A stretch of DNA of 30,320 bases, from IMG/VR virus record IMGVR_UViG_2663762810_000003; one strand, given 5' to 3'. Source of the DNA: a virus (taxonomy: Duplodnaviria; Heunggongvirae; Uroviricota; Caudoviricetes). Shown here one piece after another: positions 15,806 through 29,404 of this stretch (within the stretch, counting starts at the first letter, position 1; each line of letters opens with the position of its first letter). The translations under genes were made by a program, and so were the position numbers. The notes beneath the pieces were generated by a model. It searched no databases, was not told the DNA's origin, and was given only the letters and a program-made list of their open reading frames with translations.

Positions 15806-18034
15806 ATGAGTACCACAACACGAAAATTTAAAACCGTTATCACCGATACAGGTGCCAAAAAATTAGCTCAGGCAGCCGCGCCAGATGGTAAGCCTGTTCG
15901 CCTGACTCATATGTCCGTGGGCGACGGTGGCGGCACGTTGCCCACACCAGACAGTAAGCAGACCCGTCTGGTGCATGAGGTGTGGCGACACACAGTTAAT
16001 CGCGTCATCCTGGACGCAACACATCAGAACCGCATTATTGCGGAGCTGGTTATTCCTCCTGAAACGGGCGGATTCTGGATCCGGGAAATTGGTGTATTTG
16101 ATGAGCACGGCGATTTAATCGCGGTGGGCAATACTGCCGAAAGTTACAAGCCAGCCGTTGCTGAAGGGTCCGGTCGTGCACAAACATTTCGCACCATTCT
16201 GACCGTATCCAGCACGGCCACCGTGGCGCTTACCGTGGATAACACCATGGTGATGGCCACAGTGGATTACGTGGATGACAAACTGAAAGAGCATGAACAG
16301 TCACGACGTCACCCGGACGCCTCGCTGACCGCAAAAGGCTTTGTTCAACTCAGTAGCGCCACTAACAGCGTGTCTGAAACGCAGGCTGCAACGCCGAAAG
16401 CGGTTAAGGCCGCATATGACCTGGCTAACGGAAAATATACCGCTCAGGACGCCACGACGGCACGAAAAGGCCTTGTCCAGCTCAGTAGCGCCACCAACAG
16501 CACGTCTGAAACGCAGGCTGCAACGCCGAAAGCAGTAAAGGCCGCGTATGACCTTGCTAACGCAAAATATACCGCTCAGGACGCCACGACGGCACAAAAA
16601 GGGATAGTCCAGCTCAGTAGTGCCACCAACAGCACGTCTGAAACACTGGCCGCGACATCGAAAGCGGTTAAGGCGGTAATGGATGAAACGAACAAGAAAG
16701 CGCCCTTAAACAGTCCTGCGTTGACCGGAACGCCAACAACGCCAACTGCGCGACAGGGAACGAATAATACCCAAATCGCAAGCACGGCTTTCGTTATGGC
16801 TGCGATTGCCGCCCTTGTAGATTCGTCACCTGACGCACTGAATACGCTGAACGAGTTAGCGGCGGCGCTGGGAAACGACCCGAATTTTGCGACCACCATG
16901 ACTAACGCGCTTGCGGGTAAGCAACCGAAAGATGCCACCCTGACGGCGCTGGCCGGGCTTGCTACTGCGGCAGACAAGTTTCCGTATTTTACGGGGAATG
17001 ATGTCGCCAGCCTGGCAACCCTGACAAAAGTCGGGCGGGATATTCTTGCGAAATCGACCGTTGCCGCCGTTATCGAATACCTCGGTTTACAAGAAACGGT
17101 AAATCAGGCTTCTGGCGCATTACAGAAAAACCAGAACGGCGCAGATATTCCAGGAAAAGATACCTTCACAAAAAATATTGGTGCATGTCGCGCTTTTCAC
17201 AGTGCTATTAGTACAGGGGCAGGGAACTGGACAACGGCACAATTGATTGAATGGCTGGATTCTCAAGGGGCATTCAATCACCCATACTGGATGTGCAAAT
17301 GTTCATGGTCATACGGCAATAATAAAATTATTACCGATACTGGCTGTGGAACTATTCATCTTGCAGGTTGCGTTATTGAGGTTATGGGTAATAAAGGTGC
17401 CATGACCATCCGTGTAACAACACCAAGCACTTCCACCGGAGGCGGCACCACTAACGCTCAATTCACTTATATTAATCATGGTGATGCTTATGCTCCTGGC
17501 TGGCGAAGAGACTACAACACGAAAAACCAGCAGCCTGCATTTGCTTTAGGGCAAACAGGAAGCAGGGTTGCAAATGATAAAGCTGTTGGCTGGAACTGGA
17601 ATAGCGGCGTTTATGATGCAGATATCAGTGGCGCATCGACATTAATCCTCCACTTTAATATGAATGCGGGGAGTTGCCCTGCTGTACAGTTCCGCGTGAA
17701 TTATAAAAACGGCGGTATCTTTTATCGTTCAGCGCGTGATGGTTATGGCTTTGAAGCTAACTGGTCAGAGTTTTACACCACAACCCGCAAACCCTCTGCG
17801 GGGGATGTTGGTGCATATACGCAGGCAGAATGTAACTCAAGGTTTATTACAGGTATTCGCCTGGGCGGTCTGTCATCTGTTCAGACATGGAATGGTCCCG
17901 GCTGGTCTGACAGGTCAGGTTATGTCGTTACAGGTTCAGTTAACGGAAACCGTGATGAATTAATTGATACAACACAGGCAAGGCCAATTCAGTATTGCAT
18001 TAATGGAACGTGGTATAACGCGGGGAGTATTTAA
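15806..18034 (+). CDS. H: tail fibre protein gpH (constant N-terminus plus invertible C-terminal variable part)
   Basis: 742 aa; N-terminus matches the P2 H pattern ([16 protein letters not shown]...HEVWRH...IAELVIPPE); crossover site lies inside the gene at 17070-17095. Confidence 0.9.
16346..16690 (+). repeat. tandem 132-bp (44-aa) repeats, about 2.6 copies, inside H
   Basis: Unit starts at 16346, 16478 and 16610, encoding [44 protein letters not shown]. Confidence 0.8.
17070..17095. other. left 26-bp invertase crossover site (gix/hix-like), TTATCGAATACC-TC-GGTTTACAAGAA
   Basis: Inverted match to the right site at 20129-20154; inverted homology continues inward to about 17152. Confidence 0.6.
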
Positions 18035-27716: not shown

Positions 27717-27977
27717 ATGTTCCGTTGTCCGCTTTGTGGCGCATCTGCCCGTATCCGCACCAGTCGTCCGGAAAATGATTCAAACACCGTGCGGCAAAAG
27801 TATTACCAGTGTAACAACCTGGAATGCGGCGTATGCTTCTCAACACTGGAAGCTTTCCATAAATTCACATCGAAACACGCCTCCGGCGTTCACTCATCAG
27901 AAGGTATCCCGTGGCATGAGCTGCCAGCTTCACACAGGGGAAACAATCAGATGAGTTTGCCTTTACCTCAGAATTAA
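27717..27977 (+). CDS. ogr: Ogr-family zinc-finger late-gene activator
   Basis: MFRCPLCGASARIRTSR...YYQCNNLEC resembles P2 Ogr (MFHCPLC...RTSR...QCQNVNC); 86 aa, longer than P2 Ogr. Confidence 0.7.
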   Translation: MFRCPLCGASARIRTSRPENDSNTVRQKYYQCNNLECGVCFSTLEAFHKFTSKHASGVHSSEGIPWHELPASHRGNNQMSLPLPQN

Positions 27978-28166
27978 CAGGCAGAATTGCCGGAGTAACA
28001 AAAAAGCGATAGATTACGTGCGGGTGCCTTTCGGCTGATGGTCGGAGGGAATACCCGAAGGCCGGATGTGGAAAGGCCCCGGAAAACATTTCTGTTTAAC
28101 CGAGGCCCTAACCCGTCAACCTAGCAAGTGATAGGTTAGCGCCTCTCCAACAAAGGAGCAAGCGCT

Positions 28167-28307
28167 ATGTCGCAAAAATCGCTTACGGCCATCACGTTCT
28201 GCGTGACGGTAATCCTCATCATCTGGATGCTGCACGGTTCGCTGTGTGAAATACGGATGAGCTTCTGGGGAGCGGAGTTTGCGGCGTTCTTACAGTGTAA
28301 GCAGTAA
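28167..28307 (+). CDS. Hok/Gef-family type I toxin (46 aa)
   Basis: MSQKSLTAITFCVTVILIIWMLHGSLCEIRMSFWGAEFAAFLQCKQ; hydrophobic helix then SLCEIR and AAF as in Hok/Gef; AAAGGAG SD; below the ORF-track cut-off. Confidence 0.6.
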   Translation: MSQKSLTAITFCVTVILIIWMLHGSLCEIRMSFWGAEFAAFLQCKQ

Positions 28308-28395
28308 GGAAACCGCGACGGGGAGGCAACTCCCCGTCAATCGGTTGCTAGGGTAAGGCCGATAAGGCACCCTATCTCATAGGCATGAATAACAA

Positions 28396-28428
28396 CCCCG
28401 CAGCGTAAAAACTGCGGGGTTTCTTTTT
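28396..28428. terminator. stem-loop terminator (CCCCGCAG / CTGCGGGG, then TTTCTTTTT) between the convergent hok-like gene and 28497..28778
   Basis: 8-bp GC-rich stem followed by a T run on the plus strand. Confidence 0.55.
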
Positions 28429-28496
28429 GGAACTCTCACTAGCTAGTGAGCCGTTAACTGCACATAATGCTCGCACAACAAATCAGTTAAAAGAGA

Positions 28497-28778
28497 TTAC
28501 TCAGCATTCTCCTGCTTCCATTGCCGGATCATTTCATCGGTAACATCACTTTCATAACATACCACGTCATACCCTCCAGTACGGCTATATGCACTGCGTC
28601 CACCACATCTACTACCATTCCTTGCATGATTATACGGACACGCACAATTGCCTGGATAAGATTCAATGGATTCTTTAATTATTTCTTTCTTGATCTGAGC
28701 ATCTGACTTTCCTGTTGCTGCATACCCACTAAAAGATACCAAACAAAGGCAGATTGCCATTAATAAACCACATCGCAT
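28497..28778 (-). CDS. small Cys-rich secreted protein (start at MRCGLL; upstream in-frame ATG at 28892 is an alternative)
   Basis: Signal-like MRCGLLMAICLCLVSFSGYAATG, then GNCACPY...RCGG...VVCYE; AT-rich; no clear SD. Confidence 0.4.
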   Translation of the reverse strand: MRCGLLMAICLCLVSFSGYAATGKSDAQIKKEIIKESIESYPGNCACPYNHARNGSRCGGRSAYSRTGGYDVVCYESDVTDEMIRQWKQENAE

Positions 28779-29251
28779 ACCGATACACTCTATTACTAAC
28801 CAATCATAGCCCACATCATAAAATCGAGATGAGGAGTACAACACCTTTAACAAGAAGGTGCCATCACGATAATATGCCGTGCAATTCATCAAAAAAAAGA
28901 TCTATATCAAAGAGATAGAGTTATTATCAGTGCTGCAGACATCAGCATTCGAGGCAGCAGAAAGACAGTAAATCTAACGAATTTGTCTTTTTCTCAGGAT
29001 GTTGTCAGATTAAAAAAGATAGAGTAGCGCAGACACCTTTTGGTGGATGGTAGGAGGAAAAATGAAGTTGAGTGGGAAGATCCCAGAAAAAACTTTGGTT
29101 TAACCAAGGCCCTAGTTCAATATGCGAAATGCAGATGAGTTGCAGGAGAGTTTTGCTTCACCCTTAGAGTTTAAACAGACGTGTACTATCATTATTTCTG
29201 CATATCGCCACACCATCGCCACTTTACCGCCATTTAACAAAATACAAATAC

Positions 29252-29274
29252 AAAAAACCACCCGAAGGTGGTTT
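29252..29274 (-). terminator. rho-independent terminator of the glyW-cysT-leuZ operon
   Basis: On the minus strand: CCACC-TTCG-GGTGG followed by a T run, about 45 nt past the leuZ 3' end. Confidence 0.5.
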
Positions 29275-29317
29275 CACGACACTGCTTATTGCTTTGATTT
29301 TATTCTTATCTTTCCCA

Positions 29318-29404
29318 TGGTACCCGGAGCGGGACTTGAACCCGCACAGCGCGAACGCCGAGGGATTTTAAATCCCTTGTGTCTACCGATTCCACCATCC
29401 GGGC
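29318..29404 (-). tRNA. leuZ: tRNA-Leu (anticodon UAA), 87 nt with long variable arm
   Basis: Reverse complement reads GCCCGGATGGTGGAATCGGTAGACACAAGGGATTTAAAATCCCTCGGCGTTCGCGCTGTGCGGGTTCAAGTCCCGCTCCGGGTACCA. Confidence 0.95.

Follow-up and report, generated by a model that had tools for sequence, protein, structure and literature searches.

In this work, the question was what is encoded by a 46-codon open reading frame (ORF) lying between ogr and leuZ near the right end of a 30,320-nucleotide stretch of Caudoviricetes DNA (IMG/VR record IMGVR_UViG_2663762810_000003; this whole stretch is called the window below), and what the partial second copy of its leader, about 1 kb downstream, represents. 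A preliminary description had proposed a type I toxin locus of the Hok/Gef type with a leader-like element present twice, the second time as a remnant, and this main reading now has the support of family searches, of RNA structure and of homology to hok/sok loci that are already annotated. We conclude, with a probability of about 0.88, that the locus is a type I toxin-antitoxin module of the hok/sok family carried as cargo by a P88-like prophage, that its mRNA and its antisense Sok RNA are arranged as mapped below, and that the second leader copy is a relic.

The ORF at 28167–28307 on the plus strand encodes the 46-aa peptide MSQKSLTAITFCVTVILIIWMLHGSLCEIRMSFWGAEFAAFLQCKQ. The peptide matched the Pfam family HOK_GEF (PF01848) over residues 7–44 with 30.1 bits (E 3.7e-7), above the gathering cut-off of 22, and PHROG 251 over its full length (residues 1–46, E 2.5e-23). 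In the NCBIfam search the HokA model ranked best, although its score of 35.8 was far below the cut-off of 89, and the Hok model was also matched. The logo of the Hok family consists of M1, a C..T pair in the helix, L-C-E and a later E (10.1101/2025.08.07.668861), and the window peptide has all of these residues as M1, C12-V-T14, L26-C27-E28 and E37, together with a second C-terminal cysteine, C44. A Shine-Dalgarno (SD) sequence, AAGGAG at 28153–28158, is located 8 nt 5' of the ATG. Both the Hok/Gef hallmarks and the SD reported earlier are therefore present, and the kinship to Hok/Gef, for which an alignment to hok/sok loci had been proposed as a check, is borne out by the family searches and by homology to annotated hok/sok genes. 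The locus had also been called unannotated; this holds for the ORF track that was used then, but RefSeq contains the identical protein WP_000078920.1 at the same position under the name "Hok/Gef family protein".

The peptide also has a place in the 2026 Hok catalogue of Escalera-Maurer et al. (bioRxiv 10.1101/2025.08.07.668861), where the abundant cluster 72 includes the peptides 72_1621 and 72_1589. The window Hok differs from 72_1621 by a single residue (V15A), and 72_1589 comes from Stx2 phages, in which the locus has 83% DNA identity to that of the window; all are 46 aa long with MSQKSL...LQCKQ ends. By arabinose induction, 42 of the 45 homologs tested in that work were toxic. The only non-toxic homologs named in its text are 19_179, 60_1482 and 69_1540, none of which belongs to cluster 72, whereas 72_1621 and 72_1589 are both among the toxicity-assay constructs of Table S2 and neither is named as non-toxic (10.1101/2025.08.07.668861). 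Thus, these data directly support the ORF as a Hok/Gef peptide of a catalogued subfamily, cluster 72, whose members kill E. coli upon induction. Of 5426 complete E. coli genomes, 1549 (~29%) have the 431-bp hok locus, at 2014 places in total and with up to 7 copies per genome, and it carried a Hok/Gef label in 29 of 30 cases among the matches listed. The locus is thus already annotated and catalogued, and a one-residue variant of the window peptide is among the homologs that the catalogue reports as toxic. The earlier observation is correct but ordinary, as the module is real, catalogued and of the Hok/Sok type.

The transcript can be delimited by prediction. By consensus reading, the hok promoter would lie at 27987–28015 on the plus strand, with a -35 box TTGCCG (27987–27992), a 17-nt spacer and a -10 box TAGATT (28010–28015) that aligns with the TATAAT upstream of K-12 hokC, and the +1 was placed at about 28022. 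At the other end, the strong terminator described earlier after the ORF was recovered as an intrinsic terminator at 28394–28428, with a stem at 28394–28421 and a T-run to 28428; the terminator scan gave 4 terminator-like sites against 0.9 expected. The predicted full-length hok mRNA of about 407 nt (28022–28428, plus strand) rests on an Rfam leader match and on the minimum free energy (MFE) fold. The Rfam model RF01794 (sok / hok leader) covers 28022–28177 on the plus strand with its entire length (model positions 1–157), and its score of 47.3 bits (E 8e-9) does not reach the gathering score of 59 bits. RF01794 describes the hok leader and not the antisense strand, because its consensus resembles the hokC sense strand of K-12 at its start and reaches its end next to the hok ATG.

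The fold of 28022–28428 has an MFE of -182.5 kcal/mol and a z of -8.15 relative to shuffles. In this fold a tac-like element at the 5' end (28022–28036) forms 15 bp with an fbi-like fold-back element (28357–28372), which is complementary to the mRNA 5' end and sits just before the terminator, as in R1. The helices were evaluated in 64 distinct relatives, gathered from IMG/VR and from fetched genomes by an invariant 5' 20-mer. The tac/fbi fold-back is 96% paired in these sequences versus 37–50% with slid partners, so the fold-back known from R1 is predicted here as well; two-sided covariation is impossible for this helix, its 5' arm (tac) being the fixed search pattern. A second long-range helix of 12 bp in the MFE fold joins 28120–28132 to 28340–28352, its 5' arm overlapping the 5' end of the Sok-complementary stretch 28066–28125. 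It is 82% paired among the relatives (13–51% when slid) and shows two-sided changes in 6 of its 12 pairs, versus 0–3 in the slid controls. The hok SD (28153–28158) is opposed by an anti-SD (28145–28148) in a hairpin at 28137–28167, 93% paired with compensatory double changes in 2 of 11 pairs. A 3' stem-loop at 28316–28338 is 100% paired in the family, with compensatory changes in 4 of 9 pairs; on the model it is probably the protective 3' end of the processed hok mRNA. Taking all helices together, pairing is 82–100% in the 64 relatives versus 13–70% with the 3' partners slid by 1–3 columns. When the RNA was trimmed from its 3' end in silico, the mRNA 5' end was predicted thermodynamically to pair locally with 28040–28056 or 28068–28080, depending on the cut position. 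The folds and the alignment of relatives directly support a model in which the hok mRNA has the closed architecture of its family, with its 5' and 3' ends paired, the Sok-target 5' end paired to 28340–28352 and the SD held in a hairpin.

On the minus strand, both annotated ends of K-12 sokC align with the window, the 5' end to 28125 and the 3' end to 28066, which delimits a predicted Sok antisense RNA of about 60 nt from 28125 to about 28066. This RNA would have a single-stranded 5' tail of 12–16 nt, a hairpin (the complement of 28075–28107) and a UUUCC tail, and its predicted fold has -24 kcal/mol and a z of -3.1. From consensus reading and from the position relative to sokC, the putative sok promoter occupies 28133–28161 (minus strand), with a -35 box TTGCTC (28161–28156) overlapping the hok SD, a 17-nt spacer, a -10 box TAACCT (28138–28133) and a +1 G at 28125. 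The strict promoter scan reported neither this predicted promoter nor that of hok. As in R1, a cis-encoded antisense Sok with its own promoter was thus found in the hok leader in silico, and the alignment directly supports a putative antisense gene of roughly 60 nt where K-12 sokC lies. Alignment to known hok/sok loci had been proposed as a way to find mok, the sok promoter and the fold-back elements; a predicted sok promoter and predicted fold-back elements were located, whereas the mok frame is absent.

The missing mok frame raises the question of whether the toxin is translated at all. In R1, Hok is synthesised only if mok is translated as far as the hok SD, and mok stop codons upstream of hok abolish Hok translation (PMC9841398). 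By annotation, K-12 mokC starts 57 nt upstream of hokC and has its stop codon in common with it; the mokC ATG aligns to a non-start codon in the window. With ATG, GTG, TTG and CTG starts in the leader and all three frames considered, no upstream ORF reaches the hok SD and all of them end by 28139, and a mok ORF in the window leader was therefore rejected. What the ORF scan and the comparison with relatives did reveal is a leader ORF of 21 codons, MWKGPGKHFCLTEALTRQPSK, at 28066–28131 on the plus strand, which is frameshifted and ends 22 nt 5' of the hok SD. Its ATG at 28066 (+45 of the mRNA) is also the start of a mok-like ORF of 61–78 codons in related loci. Where the leader of a relative differs by 1–2 nt, as in strain C21, an ORF of 61–87 codons overlapping hok begins at this ATG or at one at +17; in C21 itself, with a leader of 147 nt versus 145 nt in the window, the ATG equivalent to 28066 opens an overlapping ORF of 78 codons. 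Among 79 sampled loci, 32 have a mok-like ORF and 46 lack one; the Hok peptides of the two kinds are often identical, and the loci that lack the ORF span several independent leader-length variants. In the same sample, one locus has a frameshifted hok ORF and another has no detectable hok ORF.

It follows from the missing frame that Hok translation in the window would be either independent of mok or weak, and the window toxin may be poorly expressed, every upstream ORF stopping at least 22 nt before the SD. Carried to its end, this reasoning gives a locus in which the toxin ORF is intact, the coupling frame of the mok type has been frameshifted, no Hok is ever produced and the module is carried along as a passenger. 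The effect of mok stop codons in R1 (PMC9841398) would agree with this, as would the frame from the ATG at +45, which stops at 28131 in the window and runs on into hok in C21. Nevertheless, we consider a silent hok unlikely. Almost all of the 46 loci without a mok-like ORF have an intact 46-aa Hok; between lineages the hok coding sequence is 98.6–100% identical, whereas the adjoining leader segment (28111–28166) is only 79–84% identical; and compensatory changes maintain the SD-sequestering hairpin and the long-range helices. The intact Hok, the conservation of its coding sequence and the compensated helices argue for continued selection on an expressed toxin, and from these comparisons Hok is read as being under continued selection irrespective of mok.

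How Hok could be translated without mok can be formulated, although the odds are against this proposal. We tentatively suggest that toxin translation in cluster 72 needs no mok leader peptide and that an RNA-only relay replaces translational coupling. Trimming of the 3' end would let the mRNA 5' end capture 28068–28080; the GAGGC at 28102–28106 would thereby be freed to pair with the anti-SD GCCUC at 28142–28146, and the hok SD would be released. In the thermodynamic prediction, an mRNA cut at 28340 folds in exactly this manner, the 5' end with 28068–28080 and GAGGC with the anti-SD; with cuts at 28345 and 28350 the relay fold was not seen. Such a relay would account for the gain and loss of mok-like frames through leader indels in loci whose Hok remains intact.

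The second leader copy was examined by local alignment, in which the best match pairs 28000–28110 with 29012–29114 at 79 of 103 aligned positions (77%). Its score of 55 compares with 18.1 ± 2.2 (maximum 29) for 500 dinucleotide shuffles, a z of about 17. The repeat reported earlier is thus real, but its boundaries had to be moved: it starts about 68 nt further 5' and stops at 28110/29114, 28111–28135 being unrepeated. The repeated part takes in the hok -10 box, the mRNA 5' end and the Sok terminator hairpin. The toxin ORF, the SD, the sok promoter and the Sok 5' tail are all missing from the second copy, and no hok ORF is found among the ORFs that follow it, in agreement with the preliminary description. 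On either strand it folds no better than shuffles (z -0.5 and -0.8), its antisense fold having -11.6 kcal/mol and a z of -0.5, compared with -24 kcal/mol and -3.1 for the first copy, and Rfam gave no match within it. Moreover, within the right arm no segment varies more among the four lineages compared, with 24% variable columns versus 11.5% in the segment directly before it and 1.4% within the att core, whereas the equivalent stretch of the first copy is 95–96% conserved in the same genome pairs. By BLAST against E. coli genomes and against about 120 IMG/VR loci, no intact hok was found behind a leader of the second type; the matches to this copy were all in the same relic context.

Could the second copy nevertheless serve a function, as an orphan Sok-like antitoxin (anti-addiction), as a promoter or as a site within the attP arm used in recombination or binding? 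It is kept beside attP in every leuZ-type right end sampled, at 84–100% identity, and it retains a TAGAGT box resembling a -10 element. This speaks for some use. We nevertheless regard such a function as highly unlikely: the homology ends at 29114, before the equivalents of the Sok 5' tail and the sok promoter; a reading of the sequence gives no -35 box at a workable spacing; and the shuffle-level antisense fold, the excess of variable columns over both the upstream segment and the first copy, and the Rfam result all point the other way. As a second sok gene in particular, the copy was rejected for its missing promoter and 5' tail, its lost structure and its fast divergence. On its 77% identity, shuffle-level folds and fastest divergence, the segment at 29012–29114 (plus strand) represents the degenerate remains of a hok promoter with its 5' leader. 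From its sequence, it is taken to be a decaying, non-functional relic, either of a second hok locus or of a joint formed by recombination between two phages that both carried hok. The missing parts, the lost structure and the fast divergence thus agree with the part of the preliminary description that saw a leader remnant here. The other suggestion, that direct repeats bracket an insertion of about 1 kb, fails for a transposon as well as for a target duplication, since it does not fit a repeat of about 105 nt that is 77% identical and of which the second copy is a decaying pseudo-leader.

On the genomic context, the preliminary description had left two possibilities, that the hok locus marks the right boundary of the prophage or that it forms a separate islet, and neither agrees with the position of the attachment site. 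A 121-bp attR core at 29252–29372 comprises a terminator, 3'ETS-leuZ and the 3' part of tRNA-Leu(UAA), extending to the anticodon loop. Strain 2011C-4315 has a right end with 99.9% identity to the window; in it, 29252–29372 is duplicated with 100% identity between int and yecA, which is attL; the window itself begins at the stop codon of the integrase (ORF 1–1002). Homology of the empty K-12 site (yecA, 3'ETS-leuZ, leuZ) to the window is confined to the part from 29252 to the right. Comparison with an unoccupied leuZ site had been proposed earlier, and it places the join exactly at 29252, to the right of the hok region. Since the att core is duplicated at attL, ogr, hok/sok, the 93-aa ORF described below and the second leader copy are all inside the prophage.

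From left to right, the region starts with an ogr/Delta-type zinc-finger late-gene activator (27717–27977, plus strand; Pfam Ogr_Delta, 52.4 bits; also RefSeq), the last conserved phage gene before the cargo. After the hok terminator follows an ORF of 93 aa (28497–28778, minus strand) without an assigned function, with a hydrophobic N-terminus and several cysteines. It is a hypothetical protein in RefSeq and matches PHROG 27544 (E 1.5e-59), the only Pfam/NCBIfam match being a sub-threshold one to Sclerostin that was taken as noise, and it belongs to the variable cargo between hok and attP. The phage arm (P') lies between the relic and the att core, at 29115–29251 (plus strand); it has no K-12 counterpart and travels with the att core in prophages. 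The block formed by the 93-aa ORF, the second leader copy and the P' arm is always linked to the leuZ att core.

The free phages P88, Chuche, P884B11 and 500465-2 match the window from 27978 to about 28380–28430 with 94–96% identity. This match takes in the hok locus together with about 190 nt of upstream flank, and it lies in the same part of the genome in P88 and Chuche; in Chuche, the homology starts exactly at the end of an annotated ogr-type regulator. Right after the hok terminator the phage sequences diverge, Chuche having a com/methyltransferase pair and P88 another small ORF. Over the first 25 kb, the window is 92–96% identical to P88-like Peduoviridae over 43–63% of the length. A separate islet between the prophage and leuZ, with the leader copies as direct repeats bracketing an inserted element, could appeal to the position of the region behind ogr, the last recognisable phage gene, and to the direct orientation of repeats about 1 kb apart. 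It is extremely improbable given the 121-bp att core to the right of the whole region with its twin beyond int at attL, the exact joining of the K-12 empty site at 29252 and the hok locus held by the P88 and Chuche genomes, in Chuche directly after the ogr-type regulator. The repeats themselves, 77% identical over about 105 nt and with the hok coding sequence between them, are unlike target-site duplications. The hok/sok locus, present both between attL and attR and in free phages, is thus part of the accessory cargo that a P88-like (Xuanwuvirus, P2-family) prophage, inserted in the 3' end of leuZ, carries between its ogr and attP.

By analogy with R1, we hypothesize that the module would work as follows. 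The full-length hok mRNA would be stable and inert. Slow 3' trimming would remove 28357–28372, upon which the mRNA 5' end would refold, and the short-lived Sok could then pair with 28066–28125 and trigger decay of the mRNA. If sok transcription stopped, because of prophage loss, induction or infection, Hok would be made and the inner membrane would be depolarised. The likely role is retention of the prophage segment (addiction). The position beside attP fits this role, as does survival of the locus in strains C21 and MSHS133, in which gutted remnants keep little beyond ogr, hok, the ORF and attR. In O157:H7, hok has been lost at the same site through an IS-associated deletion, which means that loss is tolerated. 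The alternatives are phage exclusion and assistance in lysis, as shown for hokW/sokW, with which lysis and phage release after induction are faster (Takada et al. 2021, PMC8621323).

For annotation, the result means that the ORF track passed over a real and probably lethal small-peptide gene together with a predicted antisense RNA, which matters little beyond annotation itself. The map can be carried over to those E. coli genomes, roughly 29%, that contain the locus, the true right end of the prophage is fixed at the leuZ att core, and the stretch from the hok terminator to attP proves to be a slot whose cargo varies among P88-like phages. A point of wider interest is that loci with the same Hok are polymorphic for the mok-like frame, which bears on the generality of the R1 coupling model.

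By comparing the locus with known systems, its closest counterparts are the catalogued peptides of cluster 72. The catalogue assayed 72_1621 and 72_1589, and the exact V15 peptide of the window is outside the tested set; it treats peptides, with the Sok, mok, mRNA structure and phage context of cluster 72 outside its scope (10.1101/2025.08.07.668861). The R1 hok/sok system (PMC9841398) differs in that its Hok has 52 aa instead of 46, in that it is carried by a plasmid instead of a prophage, and in its mok, as the window copy has no mok ORF reaching hok. Shared with R1 are a toxin of the Hok family and, by prediction, an antisense Sok in the leader, a sok -35 box overlapping the hok SD, the tac/fbi fold-back before the terminator, the GAGG box in the Sok hairpin and the 3' protective stem-loop (PMC9841398). 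The alignment of the leader to the K-12 hokC/mokC/sokC (gef) locus runs from the -10 box up to and including the Sok hairpin; however, at 60% clustering HokA, HokC and HokD fall in clusters 93, 38 and 35, and the window peptide in 72. In phage records the ORF also bears the label "MokW-like", which is a PHROG family name only. Orthology to HokW was rejected, because the primers and Table S2 give HokW as a 51-aa toxin of the HokD cluster. HokW begins with MKQQKAM... and falls together with HokD in the 60% cluster 35, in contrast to the 46-aa peptide of the window; what the two have in common is their setting, since hokW/sokW of the Stx2 prophage Sp5 is likewise a prophage-borne hok/sok module.

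The fastest-evolving part of the active hok locus is the segment that runs from the 3′ edge of the Sok hairpin to the ATG of hok (window 28111–28166), where identity is 79–84%, as against 95–100% in its neighbours. This segment spans the complement of the 5′ tail of Sok, the predicted antisense RNA, together with the predicted sok promoter. The pairing partner in the 3′-UTR (28340–28352) varies in step with it, and up to seven copies of the hok locus are co-resident in one genome. The divergence of 28111–28166 looks like a diversification of antisense specificity among co-resident hok copies.

Downstream of hok, in the interval before attP, a 93-aa ORF is encoded on the minus strand (window 28497–28778) and belongs to PHROG 27544, a family of unknown function. 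Its product has a hydrophobic N-terminus and several cysteines, and no match to it was found in Pfam or NCBIfam; at the DNA level, the ORF is 93–100% conserved. In O157:H7 strains, the prophage is represented at the leuZ site by a remnant (900–3330 of L007, the locus from E. coli O157:H7 EC4115), adjoined by elements of the IS3/IS30 families, in which only the 93-aa ORF, the degenerate second hok leader (copy 2) and attR are left and the hok locus is absent. The toxin has been outlived in O157:H7 by the copy-2 relic and the 93-aa ORF, which is still present where hok was lost.

The phage att core was located at window 29252–29372, corresponding to 2260–2380 of the comparison locus L006. At 121 bp, it is unusually long for a phage att core. 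It holds the 3′ part of tRNA-Leu(UAA), the entire 3′ETS-leuZ, a small regulatory RNA according to the K-12 annotation, and the terminator of the latter. Because the whole 3′ETS-leuZ is included in the core, lysogens carry a second copy of its sequence at attL. This extra copy adjoins yecA and is separated from the promoter of the tRNA operon.

Elsewhere in the window, a 742-aa ORF (15806–18034), whose length and place within a P2-family genome suggest a putative tail-fibre gene, contains three tandem 132-nt repeats (16315–16710) with 100%, 86% and 67% identity to the reference copy. Two small minus-strand genes (1008–2035) lie between the integrase and the adjacent annotated helix-turn-helix gene, one for a DUF2511 protein (1008–1355, PHROG 2950) and the other for a 216-aa hypothetical protein (1385–2035); together they may form another cargo slot, located at the prophage's left end.

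A cluster-72 hok locus with 83% identity to that of the window occurs in Stx2-converting phages, including many Stx2a phages; in Stx2 phage Lyz12581Vzw it occupies 770–910 of the comparison locus L010. In many records this hok carries no annotation. The peptide that it encodes differs from the characterised HokW.
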